From an uncultured virus (IMG/VR IMGVR_UViG_3300002835_000031) (taxonomy: Duplodnaviria; Heunggongvirae; Uroviricota; Caudoviricetes), in the IMG/VR virus record IMGVR_UViG_3300002835_000031: a stretch of 20,000 nt of DNA. One strand, 5' to 3'. Each line of letters starts with the position of its first letter. The stretch's first letter is position 1. Shown here piece by piece: positions 1-14,520 of this stretch. The notes beneath the pieces are model-generated. The model saw only the letters and a program-made list of their open reading frames with translations, had not been told where the DNA came from and did not search any database. The position numbers were made by a program, and so were the translations under genes.

Positions 1-3000
1 TAATGCAGTTGCTAAAGCATTAGTATTAGAATAATTTGCAAATCTTATTGGCGTTGAAGCCTGTACTCTGCCGGTCGATTGTGGCGATAATAAAATATTA
101 CCAGATGTTGATATTGTTAAATCACCAAATCCATTAATAATTCCTGCAGTATTGCCAGAACTTAATGTTACAACAGATGAATTTGCACCTGTTGCAAGAA
201 TAATATTTCCGCCGGATGTAATATTAACATTACCCGCGGAGAAAATTGTTCCACCAGCTGCGCCTGTACCATTGGCATAGAATGCGTTTGCTATTACGTT
301 ACCGGTGTTAATGTTGCCGGTATAAGTTATTAGGAACGCGGCAACATTGGCATTGGCAAATTGACTACCTTGTGGGTTTGCTGCAAGATAAGCAATAACA
401 TTTGAAACAACTCTTGCATTTGTATAATATAAGTTACCACTTGAAGCAAGTTCTGCAACATTGGCAGTTGTTAAATTAGCCTGCGTAACTGACCCACCGG
501 CTGATATACCAGTAACCGTTCCTCTAAATGTTATCGGACTGTTGACAAAAATGTTACCGCCAGCCAAATTCAAATTACCTGTAGCACTTAACAATAAGTT
601 ACTAGATGTCGATAATTCTGCAGAGCCTGTACCTGTAGCAATAAATGTATTTGCAATTATGTTTCCGCTTGCAAGAACATTTGAAGCTGTTAAATTAATG
701 GTATTATTTTGAGCAATAATGTTCAAATTACCGGTTGAATTTAATGTGCCGGACGTTGCTGAAGGTGAAATAACTGTGTTAGCTATAACATTACCTGCGG
801 AAATATTACCGGTATATGTTGTTAAGAATGCACTCACATTTGCATTACTATAACTTCCGCTTGTAGGATTTGTTAATAGATATGCTGCAACATTGGCATT
901 ACCATATGTACCGCCTTGTGGGTTTGCCGCAAGATAAGCAATAACATTTGAAACAACTCTTGCATTGGTGTAATATAGGTTGTTTAATTCTGTTACATTT
1001 GCCGTTGTTAAATTAGCCTGAGTAACCGATGCACTTGCAATACCCGTAACCGTTCCTCTGAATGTTATAGGGCTATTGACAAAAATGTTACCACCTGCCA
1101 AATTTAAATTGCCGGTCGCGCTTAATAACAAATTGCTTGAAGTTGAAAGTTCTGCGGAACCTGTACCTGTAGCAGTGAATGTGTTAGCAACAATATTGCC
1201 AGATGCAAGAACAGTATTTGCAGTTAAATTAATTGTGTCACCGGAAACAATGTTCAAATTACCAGTTGAATTTAATGTGCCAGATGTTGCAAACGGTGAA
1301 ATAACTGTGTTAGCAATAACATTGCCAGCATTAATATTGCCGGTATATGTTGTCAGGAATGCGCCGACATTAGCATTACCAAAATTACTTATTATTGGAT
1401 TTGCCGTTAAATAAGCAGTAACATTAGATAACACACGAGCATTTGTGTAATATAAATTGCCACTTGCGGCATTTTCATTTACATTTGCAGTGTTTAAATT
1501 AGCAGTTAATGCATAAGATGATAGTACTCCAATAACATTAGAATAAACTCTTGCATTTGTGTAGTATAGATTTGAACCTTCAGCAATACTAGAAGTCGTT
1601 AAGGTTAACCCTGTTAATCCTCCTCTTAATACCAGATTACCATTAACAAAAACATTTGGAGCAGTTAAGTTCAAATTACCGGCTGCACTTAATAATAAAT
1701 TACTTGTGGATACTATTTCACCGGAACCTGCACCTGCTGATATAAATGTATTTGCAACAATGTTGCCTGATACCAATACGTTGGGCGTGGTTAAATTAAT
1801 TGTACCCACCGCAGTAATATTTAAATTGCCAGTAGATGTTAGTGTAGCTGATGTTGCCGTAGGAGAAACAAAGCTGTTAGAAATTATATTTCCTGCAGAA
1901 AGATTGCCCGTATATGTTGTTAAGAATGAAGCAACATTGGCATTACTAAATGATGAAGATGCTGTAGGAGCAGCCCAGAATAAATTGCCTGTGCCATTTG
2001 TTTGCAGTATATACCCGGTCACCCCATCGGTCTTTGGCCATGCTTGCCCATCTAATATAATTCTACCTGTGCCGTTTGCAACCAATTCTATGTTGGAATT
2101 TCCGGTAGTTGATATAGATAGAACACCCACGTTGTCTATTATGCCGCCGGTTAAAATTAAGTTACCTGCAGCAATGTTACCAGTGTATGTTGGCAATGCC
2201 GCTTCAATATTTGATAATACTCGAGCATTGGTATAATATAAGTTTGAACCTTCGGCAATGCTTGATGTTGTTAGTGTTAATCCAGTTATTCCGCCTCTTA
2301 GTACTAAATTGCCGTTAACAAAAACATTCGATGATGTTAAGTTAAGATTACCGGCTGCACTTAATAACAAGTTACTTGTGGATGCAACTTCGCCTGAGCC
2401 TGCACCGGTCGATATAAAATTATTTGCTACAACATTACCTGACACCAATACGTTTGGTGTTGTTAAATTAATTGTTCCGGCCGCAGTAATATTCAAATTA
2501 CCCGTTGATGTCAATGTTGCTGAAGTTGCGGTTGGCGATACAAAACTATTGGCAATTACATTACCGGCACTTAGATTGCCAGTATAAGTTGTTAAGAAAG
2601 AACTCACATTGGCATTGCCAAAACTAACAGTCGCAGGATTTGCTGCTAAATATGCAATAACATTTGATACTACTCTGGCATTGGTATAATATAAGTTTGA
2701 ACCTTCAGCAATGTTTGAAGTAGACAATGCTGATAATGCGCTTATAACATTAGAGTAAACTCTTGCATTCGTGTAGTATAAGTTTGAACCTTCAGCAATG
2801 CTTGATGTTGTTAAAGTTAAGCCTGACAGAGCACCTCGTAATACTAAATTGCCATTAACAAATACATTTGAAGATGTTAAGTTTAAATTACCAGCTGCGC
2901 TTAATAATATATTGCTTGTGGATGTAAGTTCTGCAGAGCCTGAGCCGGTTGCAATAAATGTATTTGCTACAATATTGCCTGACACCAACACATTGGTTGT

Positions 3001-5226
3001 TGTTAAATTAATTGCACCTGCCGCAGTAATATTCAAATTGCCGGTAGATGTTATTGTTGCCGCTATTGCAGTAGGTGACAGAATTGTATTTGCAATTACA
3101 TTACCTGCACTAATGTTACCGGTGTATGTTGTTAGGAATGAAGCAACATTGGCATTGGCAAATGATGATGCAGGTGCTGCCCAAAATAAGTTGCCTGTAC
3201 CATTTGTTTGTAGTACATAACCATTAATGCCATCGGTATGTGGCCATGCCTGCCCATCTAATAAAATTCTGCCATTACCTGCCGCAGATAATTCTATGTT
3301 GGAATTTGAAGTGGTTGCAATTGTCAATACACCAACATTATCTATTATTCCACCTGTCAATATTAAATTACCTGCAGCAAGATTGCCGGTGTATGTTGAT
3401 AGGAATGATGCAACATTGGCGTTACTAAAACTACCACTTACCGGATTTGCCGCAAGGTAAGCAGTAATATTTGATAAAACTCTGGCATTGGTATAGAAAA
3501 TGCTATTGCCGGATTCAATTACGTTGGCCGTATATAGATTCAACCAAGTTGTTGCAGAAATATTACCCGCACTAATTAAATTGGCGCCTGTAAACGAACC
3601 ACCGGAACCACTGCCTGTTATAATGTTATTGGCAACAATATTGCCCGATGCAATAACATTCGGAGATGTCAAATTAATTGCACCTAACGCAGTAATATTC
3701 AAATTACCTGTTGATGTTATTGTTGCAGCTATTGCTGTAGGTGAAATAATTGTATTGGCAATAACATTGCCTGCAGTAATATTACCGGTGTATGTTGTTA
3801 GAAACGCACCTACATTTGCGTTACCATATGTACTAATTGCGGGATTTGCTGCCAAATATGCAATAACATTTGATACTACTCTGGCGTTGGTGTAATATAA
3901 ATTGTTTAATTCCGCAACATTGGCTGTGGTTAAATCTACTACATTGGCTTTTAATCTTAAATTAGACTCAACTTGAGCATTAACTCTGGCATTTGTATAG
4001 AATAGATTGTTTGTACCTTCAGTAATACCATTTGTATTGCCTGAGAATGATGATGCACCTACTCCCGTTAGAGAAGAACCATCACCAAAGAATTTTGTTG
4101 CGATTACATTACCAGATGCAATAACATTGCCGGAATTTAATGTAATATTTCCAGTGCCCGTGATATTAACATTACCGGTAGAAGATAATGTAGCAGAGCC
4201 TGTACCTACTGATATAAATGTATTTGCAATTAAATTACCGCTTGCAATAACATTTGTGGAATTGATATTGACTGCACCTGCGGCAGTCATTGTAATGTTT
4301 CCAGTAGATGTAATCAACCCAGCAGATGCGCTTGCTGATATAAATCCATTTGCTATTACATTACCAGTAACATTTAGATTGCCTGTGATATTATTAACAT
4401 TTACGGAAACGCCAGTCAAATTAGCAGAGATTTGACCATTAGCAGCGATAATAATGTTATTACCCTGTAATGACGGCATTAATGCTATAACATTGGATGC
4501 TACTCTGGCATTTGTATAGTATAAATTATTACCTTCAGCAACATTGGCAGTTGTTAAATCAACTACATTGGCCTTGGCAGCCAATAATGATACCACATTG
4601 GCAAAAACTCTGGCATTGGTAAAATAAAGATTACTTGCAGATTCTGTTACATTTGCAGTAAAAATTCCAGAATAACTATTTGCTGTTAAAGGTCCGTTAA
4701 CAACAATACTTGATCCAGTTAAAGTAACGACGCCGGTTGCGGATATTGATACGTTGCCGGTGGATGATAATAATCCAGAGCCTGGGCCGGTTGATATAAA
4801 AGTGTTGGCAATAACATTGCCAGTTGCGATAACATTTGTAGAGTTGATATTGACTGCACCCGCAGCAGTCATGGTGATGTTGCCAGAGGATGAAATTAAG
4901 CCAGCAGAAGCACTTGTGGAAACGAAACCATTGGCAATTACATTGCCGCTAACATTCAAGTTGCCAGTAACAGAAGAAACACTTACCGCAGACAGGTTTG
5001 CTGAAATAAGACCATTTGCTGCAATAGAGATATTATCGCCGGCAACAAGAGCGCCGATTGCCCTGGCGTTACTGAAATATACATTACCAGAACTTGTGTT
5101 TCCCGATTCAATAACATTACCGGTAAATATACTTTGGAAGGAAACATTGCCGGTGTTGGCACCCAGCAATTGGCCGTTACTTCCTCCATTTCCACTGATT
5201 AAACTTACATCTATTTTGCGAGCCAT
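1..5226 (-). CDS. Very long repetitive tail fibre / virion structural protein, at least 1742 aa, 3' end outside the window (not in the ORF track)
   Basis: ATG at 5226-5224 is preceded by AAAGGT (RBS-like). It translates MARKIDVSLISGNGGSNGQLLGANTGNVSFQSIFTGNVIESGNTSSGNVYFSNARA..., and the same frame at the left edge reads ...GRVQASTPIRFANYSNTNALATAL with no stop. The long + strand shadow ORFs from 461 to 5233 all share one frame, consistent with an uninterrupted minus-strand frame. About 13 NLY[YF]TNARV-type motifs and two DGQAWPxTDGxxGYxLQTNGTGNLFWAA motifs are present. Confidence 0.88.
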   Translation of the reverse strand, partial: MARKIDVSLISGNGGSNGQLLGANTGNVSFQSIFTGNVIESGNTSSGNVYFSNARAIGALVAGDNISIAANGLISANLSAVSVSSVTGNLNVSGNVIANGFVSTSASAGLISSSGNITMTAAGAVNINSTNVIATGNVIANTFISTGPGSGLLSSTGNVSISATGVVTLTGSSIVVNGPLTANSYSGIFTANVTESASNLYFTNARVFANVVSLLAAKANVVDLTTANVAEGNNLYYTNARVASNVIALMPSLQGNNIIIAANGQISANLTGVSVNVNNITGNLNVTGNVIANGFISASASAGLITSTGNITMTAAGAVNINSTNVIASGNLIANTFISVGTGSATLSSTGNVNITGTGNITLNSGNVIASGNVIATKFFGDGSSLTGVGASSFSGNTNGITEGTNNLFYTNARVNAQVESNLRLKANVVDLTTANVAELNNLYYTNARVVSNVIAYLAANPAISTYGNANVGAFLTTYTGNITAGNVIANTIISPTAIAATITSTGNLNITALGAINLTSPNVIASGNIVANNIITGSGSGGSFTGANLISAGNISATTWLNLYTANVIESGNSIFYTNARVLSNITAYLAANPVSGSFSNANVASFLSTYTGNLAAGNLILTGGIIDNVGVLTIATTSNSNIELSAAGNGRILLDGQAWPHTDGINGYVLQTNGTGNLFWAAPASSFANANVASFLTTYTGNISAGNVIANTILSPTAIAATITSTGNLNITAAGAINLTTTNVLVSGNIVANTFIATGSGSAELTSTSNILLSAAGNLNLTSSNVFVNGNLVLRGALSGLTLTTSSIAEGSNLYYTNARVYSNVISALSALSTSNIAEGSNLYYTNARVVSNVIAYLAANPATVSFGNANVSSFLTTYTGNLSAGNVIANSFVSPTATSATLTSTGNLNITAAGTINLTTPNVLVSGNVVANNFISTGAGSGEVASTSNLLLSAAGNLNLTSSNVFVNGNLVLRGGITGLTLTTSSIAEGSNLYYTNARVLSNIEAALPTYTGNIAAGNLILTGGIIDNVGVLSISTTGNSNIELVANGTGRIILDGQAWPKTDGVTGYILQTNGTGNLFWAAPTASSSFSNANVASFLTTYTGNLSAGNIISNSFVSPTATSATLTSTGNLNITAVGTINLTTPNVLVSGNIVANTFISAGAGSGEIVSTSNLLLSAAGNLNLTAPNVFVNGNLVLRGGLTGLTLTTSSIAEGSNLYYTNARVYSNVIGVLSSYALTANLNTANVNENAASGNLYYTNARVLSNVTAYLTANPIISNFGNANVGAFLTTYTGNINAGNVIANTVISPFATSGTLNSTGNLNIVSGDTINLTANTVLASGNIVANTFTATGTGSAELSTSSNLLLSATGNLNLAGGNIFVNSPITFRGTVTGIASASVTQANLTTANVTELNNLYYTNARVVSNVIAYLAANPQGGTYGNANVAAYLLTNPTSGSYSNANVSAFLTTYTGNISAGNVIANTVISPSATSGTLNSTGNLNIIAQNNTINLTASNVLASGNIIANTFIATGTGSAELSTSSNLLLSATGNLNLAGGNIFVNSPITFRGTVTGISAGGSVTQANLTTANVAELASSGNLYYTNARVVSNVIAYLAANPQGSQFANANVAAFLITYTGNINTGNVIANAFYANGTGAAGGTIFSAGNVNITSGGNIILATGANSSVVTLSSGNTAGIINGFGDLTISTSGNILLSPQSTGRVQASTPIRFANYSNTNALATAL
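330..3480 (-). repeat. Intragenic tandem duplications in the left fibre gene
   Basis: A ~540-nt duplication (ccttgtgggtttgc.gcaagataagcaataacatttgaaacaactcttgcatt at 368 and 914). A three-copy module starts near 1550, 2225 and 2765. The DGQAWP block occurs twice (about 1975-2200 and 3180-3400). Confidence 0.8.
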
Positions 5227-5279: not shown

Positions 5280-6272
5280 TTAAAACGTAATGGATCCTGA
5301 ACTGGTCCATTGATATATTCTATATCCGCCGGATACTATTACGTTAGGTGACCCTGTTGTACTTGTTGCTGATGAAAATGTATCTGCATAGCGGATGATT
5401 ACAGTACCAGAACCTCCGGAACCAGCTATACCAGTTGTCCATCCTAAACCTCCACCACCACCGCCGGTATTTACGTTGCCAGATGTTGCACTTGCTGTTC
5501 CACTAGCCGCCATAACGCCTGCACCACCACCTCCGGAACCACCATTTCCAGCAGTAGAGCCACCTTCACCGCCACCGCCACCGCCACCAGCATAATAAGT
5601 TGCAGTCCCGGTAATAGAACTAACTGCACCAATGCCGCCATTGCCACCTGTTCCCGGAGAAGTACCATTTCCGTTTGCACCGACACCTCCCGCTCCGCCA
5701 CCGCCACCAGCAACATAAATTGTATTAGGACTAGTTCCGCGTGTTCCCGAACCACCATTATTACCTTGTCCTGCAGTACCTGTTCCACCAGCAATAGTTG
5801 TAAAAGAAGCAGCAGAAGAACCACCGCCACCAGAACCGCCATTAGCGCCAACTGAAACATATGCGCCACCACCGCCGCCGCCTATTGCTGTTACCGTAGT
5901 AAATCCAGAACCAGATATACTTGAGTTAGCACCAGAAGCGGCTCGATTATTTGTTTGAGTTTGTGTTCCTTGTATTCCAACACCACCTGCGCCAACTGTT
6001 ATTGTGTATGTAACACTAACGGCTACGTTTGCCGTATTAGTTAGTAATCCACCTGCTCCGCCGCCGCCTCCGTCTGCTGAACCTCCTGCTCCTCCGCCAG
6101 CAACTACTAGATATTCTACCGTTGAAGTTGGAACAGGTGGCGGGGGCGGTTCTCCTGCAACTAAAATATTAACACTGACTTTTTGTCTTGCAATGGCACG
6201 AAAATTGTTCGCAGATGCAGAAAACTTTTGTGTAGTACTAACTTTTGCAGCACTATACTTCCGTAAGGTCAT
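5280..6272 (-). CDS. Glycine-rich virion protein, putative polyglycine-sandwich adhesin / fibre-tip protein (330 aa)
   Basis: Basic N-terminal leader, PPPPPVP linker, then VEYLVVAGGGAGG...GGGGAGG, many GGGGG runs separated by variable loops, YYAGGGGGG and the C-terminus GSGTVIIRY...YRIYQWTSSGSITF. This is a glycine-rich domain type common in tailed phages. Its start overlaps the upstream stop (TAATG). Confidence 0.8.
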   Translation of the reverse strand: MTLRKYSAAKVSTTQKFSASANNFRAIARQKVSVNILVAGEPPPPPVPTSTVEYLVVAGGGAGGSADGGGGGAGGLLTNTANVAVSVTYTITVGAGGVGIQGTQTQTNNRAASGANSSISGSGFTTVTAIGGGGGGAYVSVGANGGSGGGGSSAASFTTIAGGTGTAGQGNNGGSGTRGTSPNTIYVAGGGGGAGGVGANGNGTSPGTGGNGGIGAVSSITGTATYYAGGGGGGGEGGSTAGNGGSGGGGAGVMAASGTASATSGNVNTGGGGGGLGWTTGIAGSGGSGTVIIRYADTFSSATSTTGSPNVIVSGGYRIYQWTSSGSITF

Positions 6273-6601
6273 TAGGTAACCTCAGTGCCGAACAGATTAA
6301 AACTAATATTTGTGGTATTTGCATATACTGTTACAACGTCTGTGGCAGCCAATGTTACACCGATTGTTAGCGATATTGAATCCAAAGCAGGAACAGTTGC
6401 ATCAAAGGCAATATAATGTTTGTTTGCCAGCGTTTCACCTGCAGGTCTTACTGCAATGCGATATGCTGCTGCACTGGCATTTTGATTACAAACTGATATT
6501 GTAGAAGTAACTGCACTTGTGCCCGACGGAACAGTATACAGTGTATTTGCTGTACCTGCTGAAGGACTGATCTGTCCCAATACTTTATATGTTATCGCCA
6601 T
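6272..6601 (-). CDS. Small conserved phage structural protein, YKVLGQ type (109 aa), putative adaptor; paralogue of 9104-9433
   Basis: MAITYKVLGQ...TLYTVPSGTSAVTSTISVCN...IAVRPAGETLANKHY...GVTLAATDVVTV...FGTE aligns without gaps to 9104-9433. The pattern is beta-strand-rich. Confidence 0.8.
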   Translation of the reverse strand: MAITYKVLGQISPSAGTANTLYTVPSGTSAVTSTISVCNQNASAAAYRIAVRPAGETLANKHYIAFDATVPALDSISLTIGVTLAATDVVTVYANTTNISFNLFGTEVT

Positions 6602-6610
6602 TTTTATCTC

Positions 6611-6970
6611 TTATTCTGTTGTTGTAACAACTTCTACCCAATTTTGAACTTCTTCGTTCCATGCATAAATTTTATCATCATCTGGTTTTGCTATAGGTGC
6701 TTCCCATAAGCAAGTATTTTCATTTAATACCCAAGAATTAAATGGTGTTGGTGGTATAAATGCATCTCTTGTTGCATCATACCTATAACCAATACCAGCA
6801 TAATTTTTTCGTAATGGAGTACCCCCATTGATGTGAACGCCTGCATGAGTGTTATAGCTTGTTTGTACCCAGCTTGCGGGATCACCAAACAAACCAGTAT
6901 CAATTACATCTTGCTCGACAACGATAACCTGTGTAACGATACCGTTTTCTACTTTTGCGAAATGGCTCAT
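6611..6970 (-). CDS. Conserved phage protein (119 aa), M[AS]HFA...WxQTSYN...RKNYAGIG type; possible tail-tip accessory or assembly protein
   Basis: Strong RBS AGGAG at 6984-6980. Motifs MSHFAKVENGIVTQVIV, WVQTSYNT, PLRKNYAGIGYRYD, DAFIPP and WVLNENTCLWEAP match a family I recognise as typically adjacent to Gly-rich phage genes. The function is inferred only. Confidence 0.75.
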   Translation of the reverse strand: MSHFAKVENGIVTQVIVVEQDVIDTGLFGDPASWVQTSYNTHAGVHINGGTPLRKNYAGIGYRYDATRDAFIPPTPFNSWVLNENTCLWEAPIAKPDDDKIYAWNEEVQNWVEVVTTTE

Positions 6971-6994
6971 TTTAAAAAACTCCTATTTTCCTGT

Positions 6995-7001
6995 TATTTA
7001 T
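6995..7001 (-). promoter_or_regulatory. Putative T4-like late promoter (ATAAATA) overlapping the TGA stop of 7001-7960
   Basis: The minus strand reads TGATAAATAACAGGAAAATAGGAGTTTTTTAAAATG: late-promoter core, then AGGAG RBS, then the ATG of 6611-6970. Confidence 0.6.
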
Positions 7002-7960
7002 CAGAATGTTATTGAACCGGATGAGGTAAATTGATATATTCTATATCCGCCAGATACTGTTACGTTAGGTGAACCTGTTGTAGCTGTTGCTGCATTATAT
7101 GTATCTGCATAGCGAAGGATTACAATTCCAGAACCACCAGCACCGCCAGAAAATCTTGATCCTGAATAAGCACCGCCACCACCACCCCCACCTCCAGAAT
7201 TAGTGCCGCCGGCGCCACCGGCGCCACCGGTTGTTCCACTTGCTCCTCCGTTACTTCCGCCTGCACCGGATAATCCTGAACCAGAAGAACCTCCCCCACC
7301 TCCCCCCCCACCGCCGCCGCCGCCAGCAGAAAGTCTATAACCGCTACCGCCACCGCCGCCAGCATAATATGTTGCAGTTCCGGAAATATCAGTTGATGTA
7401 CCGGAACCGCCGGTACCGCCAGTAGGGGATGCACTTGCAGGCCCCGCATTACCTCCAACAGTATTAGAGCCACCTCCACCTCCACCAGCACCATCGATAG
7501 AACCATTTAATCCACCTCCACCATTATTGCCTTGACTAGGTGATGTTGATGGCGTGTTTCCTGCACCGCCTGTTGTTGGTATAGTAGGAGATAAACCGTA
7601 ACCTGTACCACCACCGGATCCACCAGAAGCGCCATTTAATCCAACTGAGGTAGTTCCATAACCCCCGCCAGTTGAGGTAATATCTCCAAATACAGAATTT
7701 GATCCCGAAATACCGTTGCCTCCGCCAGAGCCACCGGACCCACCACCGCCAACGGTAACAGTAATAGCAGAACCAGATGTTACAGAGTAACCAGCCGCAG
7801 TTCTGTACCCACCAGCACCGCCACCGCCACCATCAGAGCCACCACCACCTCCACCAGCAACTACTAGATATTCAACTGTTGGGGTAGGAGAAGGAGGAGG
7901 CGGAGTAATTGTTAGGGCTACCCCTGATCCGATTGAGATACCATTGAATGAAATTGCCAT
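7001..7960 (-). CDS. Glycine-rich virion protein, putative adhesin (319 aa); paralogue of 5280-6272
   Basis: Short leader MAISFNGISIGSGVALTIT, PPPPSPTP linker, VEYLVVAGGGGGG, poly-Gly runs including G12, and the C-terminus GSGIVILRYADTY...YRIYQFTSSGSITF. Confidence 0.8.
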   Translation of the reverse strand: MAISFNGISIGSGVALTITPPPPSPTPTVEYLVVAGGGGGGSDGGGGGAGGYRTAAGYSVTSGSAITVTVGGGGSGGSGGGNGISGSNSVFGDITSTGGGYGTTSVGLNGASGGSGGGTGYGLSPTIPTTGGAGNTPSTSPSQGNNGGGGLNGSIDGAGGGGGGSNTVGGNAGPASASPTGGTGGSGTSTDISGTATYYAGGGGGSGYRLSAGGGGGGGGGGGGSSGSGLSGAGGSNGGASGTTGGAGGAGGTNSGGGGGGGGAYSGSRFSGGAGGSGIVILRYADTYNAATATTGSPNVTVSGGYRIYQFTSSGSITF

Positions 7961-7975
7961 TTTTTTACTTTTAAT

Positions 7976-9094
7976 TTATGACGAGATTGCAGTTGAATGT
8001 CTATATCCTGCAGAAACATTCAACCAATTAGTTAAAGCACCAATTTGTACTGGACTAGATCTATTTGTGGTATTACCTTGACCTAATTGACCGTAGCTAT
8101 TACCGCCCCATGACCACAGTGTACCGTCGGTTTTAACTGCCGTAGTATGGAATTGTCCCGCATCAATTTTTGACCAAGTAGTCAATGCTCCAACTTGTAC
8201 AGGGCTAAATATATCAGTAGTATTACCTAAACCCAATCGGCCTGTCTCGCCTGAACCCCAAGCCCATAATGTACCATCTGTTTTAATGGCTACATTATGC
8301 TGATATGCTGCTTCTATAATTGACCAATTGGTCAACGCACCAACTTGTGCTGGACTAGAACCACCGCCCGATCCTCCATCTTGTCCTGCATTGTTTCTAC
8401 CCCAAGCCCACAATGTACCATTGGTTTTAATGGCAATCGTATGATGGTCTCCGCTAGTACAGCGCAACCAATTATTTAATGCGCCAACTTGCACAGGACT
8501 AGATCTATAAAATGTATTGCCCTGGCCCAACTGCCCATAAAAATTATTTCCCCATGACCACAGGGTACCATCGGTTTTTACGGCAAACGACGATGAACCG
8601 CCGGTGCCAATACTCGCCCACGTGGTTAATGCGCCAACTTGTTTGGGACTTGAATATGCTGTAGTATTACCGAAGCCAAGTTGTCCCGAGCCATTGGTTC
8701 CCCATGCCCACATGGTGCCATCTGTTTTTATAGCCAAACTATGCTCGCGGCCGCTGGCCAGACTACTCCAACCGGTTAATGCGCCAACTTGTACTGGACT
8801 AGATCTTGCGGTTGTAGTATTATCCCCCAATTGTCCACTGGCGTTATTACCCCAACTCCATAATGTACCATCTGTTTTTATAGCTGTATTATGATACCCA
8901 CCGCCAGCAACACTTAACCAATTACCCAGGGCACCAATTTGCGTGGGGCTCGATCTATTTGTGGTATCTCCCACGCCCAATCTCCCGTGGTAATTTACTC
9001 CCCATGACCATAAGTAAAATTCTGGTGGCGGAGGCAGATCAGGTGTCTCGTATGAAAATGTTCCACCAAATGTTAGATTTTGAAATGTGATCAT
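7976..9094 (-). CDS. RCC1/BLIP-II-like seven-bladed beta-propeller protein (372 aa), putative receptor-binding tip
   Basis: Seven ~50-aa repeats of the form [LM]W[SA]WGxNxxGQLGxGxTTxRSSPVQVGALTxWxxxxxGxxHxxAIKTDGT, which is the RCC1 repeat signature. They follow a short leader and a PDLPPPP linker. Confidence 0.88.
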   Translation of the reverse strand: MITFQNLTFGGTFSYETPDLPPPPEFYLWSWGVNYHGRLGVGDTTNRSSPTQIGALGNWLSVAGGGYHNTAIKTDGTLWSWGNNASGQLGDNTTTARSSPVQVGALTGWSSLASGREHSLAIKTDGTMWAWGTNGSGQLGFGNTTAYSSPKQVGALTTWASIGTGGSSSFAVKTDGTLWSWGNNFYGQLGQGNTFYRSSPVQVGALNNWLRCTSGDHHTIAIKTNGTLWAWGRNNAGQDGGSGGGSSPAQVGALTNWSIIEAAYQHNVAIKTDGTLWAWGSGETGRLGLGNTTDIFSPVQVGALTTWSKIDAGQFHTTAVKTDGTLWSWGGNSYGQLGQGNTTNRSSPVQIGALTNWLNVSAGYRHSTAISS

Positions 9095-9103
9095 GTTTTT
9101 ATA

Positions 9104-9433
9104 TTACTTATTCTCTGATCCAAATACGCTGAAACTAACATTGGATGTATTTGCAGAAACTGTTACCACATCCGTTGCAGCTAAAGTTATACCAGCAGTA
9201 ATGCCCAATGATTCATTTCCGGCAAGTGAAGTATTGAATGAGAAATAATGTTTGGAAGCCAGGGTCTCGCCAGCGGGTCTTATGGCAATACTAAATGTTG
9301 CAGACGAGGTTGAATAGTTGCAAACATTTAGAGTAGATATTACTGCACTGGTATCAGAGGGAACCGAATACAATGTGGTATTTGTATTCCCTGCTGGATT
9401 TGATTGACCAAGAACTTTAAATTGTAAAGCCAT
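9104..9433 (-). CDS. Small conserved phage structural protein, FKVLGQ type (109 aa), putative adaptor; paralogue of 6272-6601
   Basis: MALQFKVLGQSNP...TLYSVPSDTSAVISTLNVCN...IAIRPAGETLASKHY...GITLAATDVVTV...FGSE. Confidence 0.8.
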   Translation of the reverse strand: MALQFKVLGQSNPAGNTNTTLYSVPSDTSAVISTLNVCNYSTSSATFSIAIRPAGETLASKHYFSFNTSLAGNESLGITAGITLAATDVVTVSANTSNVSFSVFGSENK

Positions 9434-9443
9434 ATTTTTATTC

Positions 9444-12400
9444 TCACAATCCTGCTAATAAGAACGGATTAAACGTCTGTGTTGTTATTGCCTCATTACC
9501 GAAGAATTTAACTTCAATTGTAGAGTTTGGTGATGGAGTGGGAATCAATGTTAATATTGTTCCTGATACTGTGTAGTCCGTAGTAGGAATCTGAACCAAT
9601 CCGTCTATGGTAACAATGATACGTCTTGCTAACGATACAGAAGTGCCCAATGTTATATTTGCATTACCACCTGCGAATGTTTGACTATCTGTAATAGCAT
9701 GTACGCCACCGCTGATTAAACCATTGGCTGCAAGAGTTATACCTTCACCTGCGGTCAACGCAGATACCACACGGGCATTTGTGAAATATAAGTTACTACC
9801 AACTTCTGCAACATTGGCAGTTGTCAGCCCAACAATAGCTGTTGCGAATACTGTTGCACTTACGTTGGCTGAAATTCTACCGTTCGCTTCAATTGTAATA
9901 TTGTTTCCAGCCAATGTTGGTAACAATGCAATAACATTAGAGTAAACTCTGGTGTTTGTGTAATATAAATTATTTGTGCCTTCAGTAATACCATTTGTAT
10001 TACCTGTAAATGATGATGCACCTACACCCGTTAAAGATGAACCATCACCAAAGAATTTTGTTGCAGTTACATTGCCAGTTGCTACAATATTGCTTGAATT
10101 TAAATTAATATTGGCCGCAGTTATGCTAACATTGCTTGCTGCATTGATATTAAAATTACTGGTAGACGTTATCGAACCTGTACCTGTAGCAGTTGATATG
10201 AATGTATTAGAATATACGTTGCCCGTTAATATAATATTTCCACCAGAAACAATATTAAAGTCACCGGTTGCCGTTAATGTACCTGTACCGGTTGCTGCAG
10301 CAATAAAGCTATTGGCAATAACGTTGCCTGCATTAATGTTACCGGTATATGTTGTTAGGAATGCACCTACATTTGCGTTACCATATGTGCTAATTACTGG
10401 ATTGGCCGCAAGATACGCAATAACATTAGATACCACGCGAGCATTTGAGTAATATAAATTGCCGCCAAATTCATTTACGTTGGCTGTGTTTAAGCCTGTA
10501 ACCGAACTTGCGTTCAATGTCGTTGTAGATGAAATCTGACCATTTCCGCTGATTGATATACCAGAACCTGCGGACAATGCAGAAACAACTCTTGCATTTG
10601 TAAAATATAAATTACCGCTTGTTTCAATAACATTAGCAGTATATAAACCAACCCAGTTTACAGCTGTAATGGTATTTGTGCTAATTAGGTTAGCCTCCGT
10701 AATAGAGCCACCTGTTCCGCCACCTACAATAGTGTTCGCAAAAATAACGCTAGCAGAAATATTATTTGCGCTAATTAAATTAGCACCCGTAATAGAACCG
10801 CCTAAGCCTTGGCCTGCAATAATCGCATTAGCATTAATATTGCCCGCATTAATATTGCCGGTATACGTTGTTAGGAATGCACCTACATTGGCATTACCAA
10901 ATGTTCCGCCCTGTGGATTTGCTGCAAGATATGCCGTAACATTTGATAATACTCTGGCATTTGTGTAATATAAATTACTATTTGATTCGGATACGTTAGC
11001 AGTGGTCAAGCCAACAATGGATAAAACATTTACTGTTGCACTAGCTGTAGCAGAAATTCTACCATTTGCGGCAATTGTAATATTATCGCCGGCCAAGGAT
11101 GGTAAGAATCCTATAACATTTGATTGAACTCTTGCATTTGTAAAATATAAATTACCACTTGTTTCAATTACGTTGGCTGTGTATAAACCAATCCAATTTA
11201 CTGAAGAAATGTTATTTGTGCTGATCAAATTAGCACCAGTAACAGAACCTCCAGAGCCACCACCAATAATGGTGTTTGCAGTAATAACACTTGCAGAAAT
11301 ATTATTTGCGCTAATTAAATTAGCACCAGTAATAGAACCACCTAAACCAGTTCCCGAAATAATCGCATTAGCAATTACATTGCCTGCACTAATGTTACCA
11401 GTATATGTTGTTAGGAAAGCCCCAACATTGGCATTGCCATAAGTACTAATTACCGGATTTGCTGCAAGGTAAGCGGTAACATTTGACAATACTCTGGCAT
11501 TTGAATAATATAAATTGCCACCAAATTCATTTACGTTGGCTGTGTTTAAGCCTGTAACAGAACTTGCGTTTACTGTTGCTGTAGATGATATTTGGCCGTT
11601 TGCAGATAATGAAATACCTGAGCCTGCGGACAATGCAGAAACAACTCTGGCATTTGTAAAATATAAATTACCACTGGTTTCAATAACATTCGCAGTATAT
11701 AAATTGTGCCATGTTGTTGATGAAATTCTTCCCGCAGTAACATTTCCAGTTGTTACGATATTGTTTGAATTTAAATTAATGTTACTTGCTGTTATATTAA
11801 CATTGCCGGCAGCATTAATATTAAAGTCGGATGTTGATGCAATTGATCCAGAGCCTGTTGCGGTAGATATAAATGTATTGGCAAAAACATTACCTGTTAA
11901 TCTAATGTTGCCGCCGGAAACAATATTAAAATCGCCAGTGGCGTTTAATGTACCTGTACCTGGTGCAGTAGATATAAAACTATTTGCAATTACATTACCA
12001 GCACTAATATTACCGGTATACGTTGTTAGGAAAGCGCTCACATTAGCTGTGCCAAATGTGCCAACTTGCGGATTTGCTTCAAGATATGCAGTAACATTCG
12101 ATAACACACGAGCATTTGTATAATATAAATTGCTATTTGATTCTGATACGTTAGCTGTGTTCAAACCTACAACTGAACTTGCGTTTACTGTTGTTGTGGA
12201 TGAAATTTGTCCGTTACCGCTAATTGCAATACCGGAACCAGCTGACAATGCAGAAACAACTCTGGCATTTGTAAAATACAAATTACCACTGGTTTCAATT
12301 ACATTTGCTGTGTATAGTCCAAGCCAATTTACAGATGAAATATTATTTGTACTAATTAGGTTAGCACCTGTAAACGAACCGCCTGTTCCTGAACCAGTAA

Positions 12401-14192
12401 TAATTGTGTTAGCAATTACATTACCAGCACTAATGTTACCTGTATATGCAGATAACAGTGCAATAACATTAGCATATACTCTTGCGTTTGTATAATATAA
12501 ATTGCCTGCAACTTCTGTTACGTTTGCAGTAGATAAATTGTTAACAGTTGTTTCAATTGTTGCTGTTACATTTGCCGTTGCACGAATCGTACCTGTAGCC
12601 GGGTCATAGATAATTGTAGAGTCGCCAGCGCTTAATGCCGCTCTTGCAAGAGCATTACTAAAATACTTGTTAGTGCCTTCGGTTAAATTACTTGTGGTGA
12701 AGTTGCTTAATGTTGATACTGTACCTTGTACATTACCAAATAATGTGGTAGCCGATAAATTTGCCAATCTAAATGACGCGTGCGCAGTATTGATAAAGAT
12801 GTTTGCATCGGGTGCAGGATCGTAGTTATCAAATACTTTAAATGTTCCGTCGGTTGCATCTCTAAAGAAACCGGCATTATGATATACGCCATCGTTATAG
12901 TTAAATGCAATACCTAGATCCGGATTTGCAGATGGTGAACCATTGTTCAAATAAATCATATTGTCCGATATGGACAAATTATTTGAGCTGTGAGTTGTTA
13001 CATTACCGTAAAAATTTACAGGCCCGGTAACATTTAATCCACCAAATGTAACATTTGAAGATGTGGATACATTTTGACCAATTGAAATACCGCCGGTTGT
13101 GTTATCATATGATACGCCAGTATCGCCAGATAATGCAGATCTTACACGAGAATTTGTATAATAAAGATTGTTTAGTTCTGTAACATTGGCAGTTGTAATA
13201 TTTGCTGTTAAAGGACCGTTAATAACAACGCCATCACTACCGCTTAAAGTAACAATGCCGATCGCAGATACTGTTACGTTGCCAGTAGATGATATTAATC
13301 CTGAGCCTGGACCGGTTGATACAAAATTATTTGCAATTACATTGCCGCTAACATTCAAATTACCAACAACACTATTAACAGCTACCGCTAATAAATTAGC
13401 AGAAATTCTACCATTTGCAGCAATAATAATATTATCGCCGGCTAATGTGGGTAACAACGCAATAACATTAGATGCTACTCTTGCATTGGTATAATATAAA
13501 TTGTTTAATTCTACAACATTTGCAGTAGTAAGGTCCGTAACATTTGCTTTAAGATTTAATAGCGGAGTAACATTAGATACTACTCTTGCATTGGTGTAAT
13601 ATAAATTGTTTAATTCTACAACATTTGCGGTTGTTAAATCTGTAACATTTGCTTTAAGATTTAATAGCGGAGTAACATTCGCCAATACTCTTGCATTGGT
13701 AAAGTATAAATTTGTACCTTCTGCTAAATCAGCAGTTGTAAAATTACTTAATGTTAAAACAGTATTTGCAACATTAGCAGTTAATGCAATATTTGCAAAA
13801 TTAGCATTTGCAGCAAAAAATGCAGTATTAGCAACAAGCGAACTTTGAACTATTCCCAATATGGTATTGGCTACATTCGATAATTCGGTGGACGAAACAG
13901 TAATTATATTAGGAACCCAATTTGTTCCGTCCCATATTAAACCATATCCAAGACCAGGGGCAAGCGTTACAGTATCTACATCTGCTAACGCATTAATACT
14001 TATTGCTGATAAATTTGCCGTAGGTAAAATCCAAGCTCGGTTACCATCTACATTCGCAGTTAATACATAACCATTGGCAGCAGGCAAGCCTAAGTCTGGT
14101 TCAGTTTCCTCTAGACGTATAAATTCATAACGACTAGCGCTTACATTGGCGCTAGGTGTCTTTTTTACTCTACCCGATATTAGTTTAGTCAT
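9444..14192 (-). CDS. Long repetitive tail fibre / virion structural protein (1582 aa)
   Basis: The N-terminus MTKLISGRVKKTP...RYEFIRLEETEPDLGLP resembles T4-like cyanophage virion proteins. It has about 16 NLY[YF][TS]NARV-type motifs, a DLGxxxxYNDG...AGxFRDATD...FDN domain, a C-terminal IDGLVQIPTTDYTVSG beta-domain and a terminal FNPFLLAGL. It overlaps the upstream gene by 8 nt (ATGACTAA). Confidence 0.85.
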   Translation of the reverse strand: MTKLISGRVKKTPSANVSASRYEFIRLEETEPDLGLPAANGYVLTANVDGNRAWILPTANLSAISINALADVDTVTLAPGLGYGLIWDGTNWVPNIITVSSTELSNVANTILGIVQSSLVANTAFFAANANFANIALTANVANTVLTLSNFTTADLAEGTNLYFTNARVLANVTPLLNLKANVTDLTTANVVELNNLYYTNARVVSNVTPLLNLKANVTDLTTANVVELNNLYYTNARVASNVIALLPTLAGDNIIIAANGRISANLLAVAVNSVVGNLNVSGNVIANNFVSTGPGSGLISSTGNVTVSAIGIVTLSGSDGVVINGPLTANITTANVTELNNLYYTNSRVRSALSGDTGVSYDNTTGGISIGQNVSTSSNVTFGGLNVTGPVNFYGNVTTHSSNNLSISDNMIYLNNGSPSANPDLGIAFNYNDGVYHNAGFFRDATDGTFKVFDNYDPAPDANIFINTAHASFRLANLSATTLFGNVQGTVSTLSNFTTSNLTEGTNKYFSNALARAALSAGDSTIIYDPATGTIRATANVTATIETTVNNLSTANVTEVAGNLYYTNARVYANVIALLSAYTGNISAGNVIANTIITGSGTGGSFTGANLISTNNISSVNWLGLYTANVIETSGNLYFTNARVVSALSAGSGIAISGNGQISSTTTVNASSVVGLNTANVSESNSNLYYTNARVLSNVTAYLEANPQVGTFGTANVSAFLTTYTGNISAGNVIANSFISTAPGTGTLNATGDFNIVSGGNIRLTGNVFANTFISTATGSGSIASTSDFNINAAGNVNITASNINLNSNNIVTTGNVTAGRISSTTWHNLYTANVIETSGNLYFTNARVVSALSAGSGISLSANGQISSTATVNASSVTGLNTANVNEFGGNLYYSNARVLSNVTAYLAANPVISTYGNANVGAFLTTYTGNISAGNVIANAIISGTGLGGSITGANLISANNISASVITANTIIGGGSGGSVTGANLISTNNISSVNWIGLYTANVIETSGNLYFTNARVQSNVIGFLPSLAGDNITIAANGRISATASATVNVLSIVGLTTANVSESNSNLYYTNARVLSNVTAYLAANPQGGTFGNANVGAFLTTYTGNINAGNINANAIIAGQGLGGSITGANLISANNISASVIFANTIVGGGTGGSITEANLISTNTITAVNWVGLYTANVIETSGNLYFTNARVVSALSAGSGISISGNGQISSTTTLNASSVTGLNTANVNEFGGNLYYSNARVVSNVIAYLAANPVISTYGNANVGAFLTTYTGNINAGNVIANSFIAAATGTGTLTATGDFNIVSGGNIILTGNVYSNTFISTATGTGSITSTSNFNINAASNVSITAANINLNSSNIVATGNVTATKFFGDGSSLTGVGASSFTGNTNGITEGTNNLYYTNTRVYSNVIALLPTLAGNNITIEANGRISANVSATVFATAIVGLTTANVAEVGSNLYFTNARVVSALTAGEGITLAANGLISGGVHAITDSQTFAGGNANITLGTSVSLARRIIVTIDGLVQIPTTDYTVSGTILTLIPTPSPNSTIEVKFFGNEAITTQTFNPFLLAGL
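10320..12490 (-). repeat. Intragenic modular repeats in the 1582-aa fibre
   Basis: Repeated blocks LYTANVIETSGNLYFTNARV, AYLxANPxxxT[YF]GxANVxAFLTTYTGNIxAGN and GGSITGANLISANNISASV recur in shuffled order with high DNA identity. Confidence 0.8.
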
Positions 14193-14520
14193 TTGCTGTT
14201 TCTAATAAACTCATAACTAATTTTAGTGCGGTGTTTGCACTGGCAAAAGCTACCACCTTTTGTCCCGTCTCTAATACAAGCTTACCTGTTAAAACACTTG
14301 CAGAATCCTTTGTGGGAATCTCAAAATCTTTGGCCAATTCAATTTGTTGATTTGTTGCCGTACTATGTAATAGAGTAGTTGATACCGTATTATTACTCAC
14401 ATTAGTTACTTGCAAAGATAAGATAATAGATGTTTTTAACGCAGGTGCGGTATAAATTACATTAGATTGTGTTGTAAGATTTGATGTTATTGTTTTAAAT
14501 ACGTTTAATGCTGTTGCCAT
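14185..14520 (-). CDS. Small conserved phage structural protein (111 aa), distant relative of the two 109-aa proteins
   Basis: MATALNVFKT...VIYTAPALKTSIILSLQVTN...IPTKDSASVLTGKLVLETGQKVVA...SLLE has the same size and the same [FY]K...Y[TS][AV]P...N...P...L pattern as 6272-6601 and 9104-9433. Confidence 0.75.
   Translation of the reverse strand: MATALNVFKTITSNLTTQSNVIYTAPALKTSIILSLQVTNVSNNTVSTTLLHSTATNQQIELAKDFEIPTKDSASVLTGKLVLETGQKVVAFASANTALKLVMSLLETAND

Follow-up and report, generated by a model that had tools for sequence, protein, structure and literature searches.

In the Klebsiella phages KP32 and K11, a conserved 29-aa N-terminal peptide of the receptor-binding protein (RBP) RBP2 docks on a T4 gp10-like branching domain of RBP1; without these 29 residues, incorporation is lost in KP32, and fusion of a foreign head is possible (PMC13352976). 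G7C gp66/gp63.1 and the CBA120 tailspike proteins are related branched systems according to the same source. Here, we compare these and other described systems with a locus of an uncultured virus (IMG/VR record IMGVR_UViG_3300002835_000031). The 20,000-nt stretch that was analyzed, referred to as the window, contains three minus-strand genes that each encode a short N-terminal leader, a proline (Pro) run, and a head: Gly-rich 2 (330 aa, 5280..6272), Gly-rich 1 (319 aa, 7001..7960), and an RCC1-like propeller (372 aa, 7976..9094). These are two-part modules, in which the leader is fixed and the head is exchanged between strains at the Pro hinge; the leader probably serves to anchor the head, a host-binding tip in this reading, on the virion.

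Four further systems were used for comparison. The attachment subtype of the gp38 adhesins matches the gp37 end (PMC3157838). In Pam3, the gp24 fibre trimerises and docks via an N-terminal helical domain, with gp25 as its chaperone (PMC9608196). The HFTV1 turret leads from the capsid to a binding head that is inserted by a stalk (bioRxiv 2024.12.09.627619). Phage phAPEC6 has eleven RCC1-like paralogs; ‘DNA condensation’ proteins, which are taken to be these RCC1-like proteins, occur in its virion proteome, and an inner-body role was proposed (PMC7247149). PMC8651126 and PMC13730344 offer loose analogies only.

Leader, Hinge, and Head Architecture

A Pro run lies at the domain boundary in all three proteins, just as the initial annotation of the window had placed it, with no correction to coordinates, leaders, or runs. 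The RCC1-like protein has a 17-aa leader (9044-9094) and a hinge at 9023-9043, Gly-rich 1 has a 19-aa leader (7904-7960) and a hinge at 7880-7903, and Gly-rich 2 has a basic 41-aa leader with a net charge of +6 (6150..6272) and a hinge at 6129..6149. At least four Pro in 8 aa near the N-terminus were found in 12 of 16 RCC1/Gly-rich open reading frames (ORFs) of the genome vs. 1 of 70 other ORFs of at least 150 aa, and this lone exception is itself a leader-bearing gene. Contigs bridged each of the three hinges with 0–3 differences in at least two of four lake runs, none of which was flagged as a possible source. The junctions are therefore not assembly chimeras, and such an origin was ruled out.

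The leaders belong to several classes. The genome contains 18 leader-bearing head genes, of which 15 have a class A leader, two a class B leader (both RCC1), and one a class E leader (Gly-rich 2). The kinship previously noticed between the leaders of the RCC1-like protein and Gly-rich 1 was borne out: both are class A, and both were recovered by a leave-one-out hidden Markov model (HMM) analysis, in which every one of the 15 class A leaders scored higher than any of the genome's 145 remaining N-termini. In the class A pattern, G/N and G turns separate three short stretches of alternating hydrophobic residues; N-termini are the only places where it scores. The 15 heads behind it are 10 RCC1, three Gly-rich, one with a weak fn3 match, and one without a Pfam match; the genes sit in three clusters in the genome. 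When the class A profile (24 positions) was searched against 1.84 billion representatives, a single match was obtained inside an unrelated 2312-aa repeat protein; it was dismissed as chance, the profile being too short for that library.

Twelve further class A leaders from other phages precede Gly, LamG, fn3, or unassigned heads. Several of these have no Pro run and one has a Gly linker, so the hinge is a linker for which polyproline is not required. The Pro-run hinge thus holds for all three window proteins, but not as a requirement, since it is optional in other phages.

The end of the class E leader resembles the first strand of a Gly-rich head, and two loci (L129/L132) run straight from the leader into a Gly head; this head-like end is probably a relic of an older payload. 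Separately, class B and class C leader types were observed either together on a single RCC1 gene, as a fusion, or distributed over a tandem pair of RCC1 genes (L064, L081, L099, L112 vs. L047, L051, L054), which suggests that there are two docking sites and that one head or two can fill them.

Exchange of Heads Behind Fixed Leaders

The initial annotation proposed that leaders recur on diverse domains. Leaders were indeed found on unrelated folds, with payloads swapped at the hinge: the class E leader on RCC1, LamG, and Gly heads, and the class A leader of Gly-rich 1 on RCC1. At 78–98% identity, the class E leader was present in 11 of 36 candidate proteins (eight RCC1, one LamG, one Gly-rich, and one LamG-like below the cut-off). 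A metagenome scan for its DNA pattern gave 12 matches, comprising five unrelated ones (L206-L210, left out of the sister comparisons), one from the same phage (L203), and six sister contigs; in viral contigs, the pattern was found only in two copies of the same phage.

Sister loci carried different heads at the same gene position. The Gly-rich 2 position was occupied by RCC1 in 5/5 sisters with a visible head (three distinct starts; L202 is cut). RCC1 also stood at the Gly-rich 1 position in L202, behind a leader identical over 57/57 nt; L204 and L205 had other Gly alleles there, and P0012, one of 14 candidates, had another RCC1 allele behind the Gly-rich 1 leader. At the RCC1 position, the leader was 16/17 identical in two sister alleles and the heads were about 50% identical. 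L264 encodes LamG behind a leader that bears a Gly head in the source genome. In 10 of 11 comparisons, the Pro run was where the high-identity prefix stopped; for Gly-rich 2, identity to the sister alleles stops at 6145-6135. Global identities near 30% between unrelated heads were regarded as alignment noise and were unused. As a caution, the end of the prefix at the Pro run may reflect an indel in same-fold alleles. Between unrelated folds, heads are exchanged at the hinge behind a fixed leader. Such hinge recombination would renew binding specificity without disturbing assembly.

Folds of the Heads

The Pfam scan (E ≤ 0.01) of the protein at 7976-9094 gave six RCC1 (PF00415) hits over the cut-off and PF25390 at 274 bits. 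The protein matches UVR8/HERC2/RCC1, and it has the tandem RCC1 repeats of an RCC1-like beta-propeller. The 56 RCC1 repeats of the genome have a constant frame around a small number of highly variable positions, the pattern that a library of binders would be expected to show. phAPEC6 likewise has many RCC1-like paralogs in one phage; unlike the reading given here, its authors proposed an inner-body role, and the available text of PMC7247149 mentions neither a leader nor a swap.

Both Gly-rich genes contain PF21722 (Gly_rich_2; 80.9 and 44.1 bits vs. a cut-off of 24.3), and their heads are paralogous, as had been supposed (BLASTP, 9e-21; 55% in the alignment). The Gly-rich 1 model has a predicted local distance difference test (pLDDT) score of 83.5. 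Its head matched the Bxb1 tail tip (chain 9d93_Q; Z 13.6; root-mean-square deviation [rmsd] 3.4; 168 aligned) and the Pam3 fibre (Z 13.0; rmsd 2.6; 167 aligned), followed by a next match at Z 6.8; the same two were also ranked at the top by Foldseek (E about 0.02). The Gly head is therefore predicted from the model to be a beta-sandwich plus polyglycine bundle resembling a tail tip. Polyglycine core motifs with variable segments between them were present in the Gly-head alignment and model. Pam3 gp24/gp25 and the Bxb1 tail tip share with the Gly-rich proteins the beta-sandwich plus Gly-rich bundle and the small companion gene after the Gly-rich gene. The N-terminal helical domain of Pam3 gp24, in contrast, is absent from the lake-phage Gly-rich proteins.

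The window proteins had at first been compared with gp38-type adhesins; by Pfam they fall outside that family. No gp38 family was found in the Pfam scan of the window proteins, in which the Gly-rich genes gave only PF21722. A profile search of Protein Data Bank (PDB) sequences with the Gly head listed the Pam3 fibre and not gp38, and a tblastn search of 50,697 phage records with Gly-rich 1 as the query returned zero matches. S16 gp38 was not among the structural matches listed for the Gly head, which does not by itself exclude an unlisted family. The locus is like T2/T6/S16 gp38 in its separate tip gene, its N-terminal attachment part, its Gly-rich motifs with variable segments, and an attachment subtype that co-varies with the fibre C-terminus (PMC3157838). 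It differs in that the leader is 17–41 aa long and also occurs on unrelated folds, and in that an extra adapter gene stands between fibre and tip.

Small Adapters Between Fibre and Leader

The gene order in question is fibre, small adapter, leader-bearing head. In the window, the 109-aa protein b (109b, 6272..6601) has a stop that overlaps the Gly-rich 2 start, and it is identical at 107–109 of 109 positions in three sister loci. The 109-aa protein a (109a, 9104..9433) is 57% identical to 109b and directly follows a 1582-aa fibre-like protein (9444..14192), whose C-terminal hydrophobic tail motif is of the kind that precedes 109-type genes. We consider 109a a likely fibre-end coupler.

The 109b model is an eight-stranded jelly roll (pLDDT 94), and the 109-aa adapter is thus predicted to be a single jelly roll. 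Its VIA matches included nucleoplasmin HDT1 (Z 9.7), the KHP40 cement trimer (Z 9.6; rmsd 2.9; 102 aligned), and an HFTV1 turret chain (Z 9.0). No sequence relative of the adapter profile was found in the PDB (best E 0.52), and the ESM Atlas returned only unnamed viral clusters for 109b. The gp10/XD domain was not among the top 50 fold matches of the adapter, an absence that excludes nothing. Much like the coupler proposed here, a small jelly-roll chain of HFTV1 (8qpg_TD, 114 aa, Z 9.0) forms a link, there between the capsid and a binding head; judged from its length, this chain would be the hexameric turret base. The HFTV1 turret differs in being capsid-borne and archaeal with one enzymatic head type, and so middling a fold match does not show a shared function.

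To relate the adapters to their neighbors, 66 distinct 109-type and 50 distinct 123-type small genes over the score cut-offs were counted in the retrieved loci, with 15 weaker ones left out. The upstream gene was uncalled for 13 of the 109-type and one of the 123-type adapters. Of the 53 109-type adapters left, 45 came after a gene ending in one hydrophobic motif, M1, and of the 49 123-type adapters left, 48 came after a gene ending in a second hydrophobic motif, M2, with zero crossovers. Downstream, the nearest-neighbor leader gave the correct adapter type for 55 of 61 cases after deduplication, where 5000 shuffles had a mean of 31 and a maximum of 47; restricted to Gly heads, the prediction was correct for 23 of 27. 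The class B motif came after 19/45 123-type vs. 0/60 109-type genes. In held-out loci, 12 of 14 new 123-type adapters followed M2 and none M1, and 9 of 13 had a B/C leader. In sister L205, the fibre end was changed, the 123-aa adapter lost, and the leader class changed, all together. The order of tail motif, adapter, and downstream gene was also found in cultured Melnitz, phiPsal1, HTVC026P, and S-SRM01. This co-variation of adapter type with the upstream fibre end and the downstream leader class fits a coupler role. The idea that leaders act as address tags accordingly held in one part, because the leader class tracks the type of the neighboring jelly-roll gene, and failed for the 119-aa protein discussed below, which tracks the payload.

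Several points weigh against this reading. The definitions of M1 and M2 were post hoc, relatives share labels, these same proteins served as queries to retrieve the loci, and no new 109-type adapter occurred among the held-out loci. Neighboring leaders also predicted the payload type (36/61 vs. 18.6 shuffled), so leader and head are not independent. The jelly-roll matches of the adapter are middling and include non-viral nucleoplasmins (top Z 9.7). Finally, a class A leader adjoins an adapter in only 1 of 15 genes, and this lone case (109a followed by RCC1 after a 9-nt gap) breaks the usual pairing of 109-type adapters with basic leaders. A co-folding run that combined the Gly-rich 2 leader with 109b in three copies speaks neither for nor against the reading: it scored 0.01 against a mark of 0.32, with controls unfolded, stoichiometry guessed, and the fibre tail peptide left out.

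The scarcity of adapters beside class A leaders bears on another explanation, that these leaders are dock-free and that each forms a rung of three short beta-strands, stacking into a beta-solenoid filament or collar showing up to 15 heads. The hydrophobic residues of 31 aligned class A leaders alternate in three pairs, with a G/N turn in 31/31 and a Gly turn in 26/31; the 15 copies lie in three clusters, 14 of them without an adjoining adapter; and the class A leader of Gly-rich 1 is of low confidence in the monomer model (pLDDT about 50). Nevertheless, the best internal repeat in the fibres of the genome reached 4.8 bits vs. 10–24 for the leaders, and the class E, B, and C leaders are left unexplained. 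Stacking is considered unlikely.

The cement-like fold of the adapter raises the further possibility that the jelly-roll proteins are unrelated decorations and that the leader is the missing piece of a split domain, completing a beta-sandwich directly with the fibre end. The resemblance to capsid cement proteins and the fused or split arrangement of class B/C leaders would agree with it. We consider it very improbable, given that the adapter type is coupled to both flanking motifs, that in L129/L132 the adapter is fused to a Gly head, and that the adapter model is already a complete sandwich without the leader.

Leaders might also be kept for genetic reasons, such as translation start and coupling or recombination homology arms, and the proteins would then be binders without a structural role, acting, for instance, as decoys set free at lysis or on proteins inside the cell. 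In keeping with this, 109-type adapters overlap the next start codon in 53/60 cases, the solved RCC1 relatives are eukaryotic intracellular proteins, and in the phAPEC6 study, RCC1-like proteins were proposed to act on DNA in the inner body (PMC7247149). The class A pattern, however, is kept at the protein level across divergent paralogs and phages; changes in the slot-3 leader are mostly silent (5 nt, 1 aa); the leader class tracks adapter and fibre-tail type; and the heads resemble tail-tip folds. In addition, no signal-peptide-like hydrophobic core with a basic n-region was seen in the leaders, which rules them out as signal peptides. Overall, purely genetic reasons appear rather improbable.

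Anchoring on the virion is the preferred reading. An adapter oligomer would grip the hydrophobic C-terminal peptide of the fibre on one side and the matching leader on the other, and on balance 109b may well take the class E leader of Gly-rich 2. The class A leader of the RCC1-like protein and Gly-rich 1 would dock on a putative repeated virion site. Located on the virion and docked in this way, the heads would bind host surfaces, one virion or one burst might display many of them, and several receptor specificities per virion may result. A broader generalization has a low probability in our estimation: a peptide-address code in aquatic phages, built from triplets of fibre tail peptide, free jelly-roll coupler, and leader, together with one leader class that stacks on itself as beta-solenoid rungs into a mixed filament, giving at least 15 unrelated-fold heads per virion renewed by hinge recombination.

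The closest parallel is KP32, where a short N-terminal peptide also serves as an address, an exchangeable specificity domain stands behind it, and several binders occur per virion. The short conserved N-terminal peptide and exchangeable domain of branched RBPs are both present in the lake phage. Enzymatic tailspike heads were not found: its heads are non-enzymatic folds, namely RCC1, polyglycine (PF21722), LamG, or fn3. Also unlike KP32, the presumed dock is a free-standing gene of 109–125 aa and not a domain of RBP1, and at least three leader classes and 18 head genes occur in one genome. No description of the adapter/leader gene order was found in the literature searched, most subscription journals and supplements lying outside it.

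Three side observations concern these loci. In Pontimonas phage phiPsal1 (L216:4336-5240), an unannotated frame after the adapter has a basic start and a Gly-rich head, where the record annotates two other frames. In L101, L120, and L249, a 186–202-aa gene, which we take to be GIY-YIG homing endonuclease-like, directly follows the 123-type adapter, where a leader-bearing head is usual. A further, short leader class with an MSG start follows fibres that have a larger terminal domain and no separate adapter gene (L013, L036, L078, L205).

Companion Genes of the Heads

The 119-aa protein (6611..6970; phrog_7759), a companion of the Gly-rich head, had been suggested as a docking partner of the leaders. 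Members of its family come directly after a Gly head in 47 of 57 cases and never after an RCC1 head, and the protein therefore belongs to the payload; a role as leader dock was ruled out on this ground. An unrelated 128-aa family follows RCC1 in 25/33 and Gly in none. Where RCC1 occupies the slot in L202, the 119-aa gene is largely deleted (an assembly fault is possible). By analogy, the 119-aa protein is probably a payload chaperone that would act on Gly heads in the manner of Pam3 gp25; its likeness to gp25/Tfa is one of gene position.

Behind the RCC1 allele of L202 (L202:408-578), a remnant second copy of the leader is joined to the last Gly-head codons, followed by the largely deleted 119-aa gene; this stems either from joint decay of the head and its chaperone or from a fault in the assembly. 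L042 contains a 128-aa RCC1-companion gene (L042:14921-15307; G000 99420-99806) and, after an fn3-type head, a 175-aa gene with a weak tail-assembly-chaperone match (L042:558-1085; G000 85057-85584). Perhaps there is one chaperone family per head fold.

Genome Setting and Remaining Window Genes

The source genome is a 127,885-base virus record that is 79% complete, and the window is its end. It contains T4-like head, tail, and baseplate genes (labels by reading translations), and its major capsid protein is closest to that of Methylophilales phage Melnitz (66%). The genome is a Melnitz-like T4 relative, a lake phage. Among the runs listed, 24 freshwater/lake runs contained the stretch, 11 of which were flagged as possible sources, and no RNA run did.

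All window genes are on the minus strand, and the large ones fall among tail fibre and structural proteins (PHROGs). A 1787-aa fibre-like protein (1..5226) extends beyond the window edge; next in the genome come a 123-type adapter and two RCC1 genes with class B leaders. A 111-aa distant adapter paralog (14185..14520; phrog_1276) lies between an 848-aa protein and the 1582-aa fibre, flanked by the hydrophobic end of the former and the basic N-terminus of the latter; the same coupler may chain fibre segments. A TIM match on the 848-aa protein scored only at the cut-off and is probably spurious. Elsewhere in the genome, an enzyme-like gene block (L043; G000 99874-104909), whose genes are presumably sulfotransferase-, methyltransferase-, and oxygenase-like by their motifs, sits between head arrays, and comparable blocks lie beside RCC1 genes in L051 and S-SRM01.

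Implications

The principle of peptide docking is already known from KP32, which limits the surprise. What is new is that the couplers are free-standing, that there are several leader classes, that unrelated folds replace one another, and that the repertoire is of this size. If the proposed reading is true, it would account for the ability of T4-like and smaller phages that infect streamlined aquatic bacteria to bear many binding heads and change them fast, with the fold itself being exchanged behind a constant anchor of 17–41 aa. It also gives a testable role to three large unannotated families, the phrog_1276-like adapters, phrog_7759, and the phage RCC1 proteins, the last of which are currently labelled ‘regulator of chromosome condensation’. 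Such testing is feasible in Melnitz, phiPsal1, and HTVC026P, which are in culture and share this gene order.

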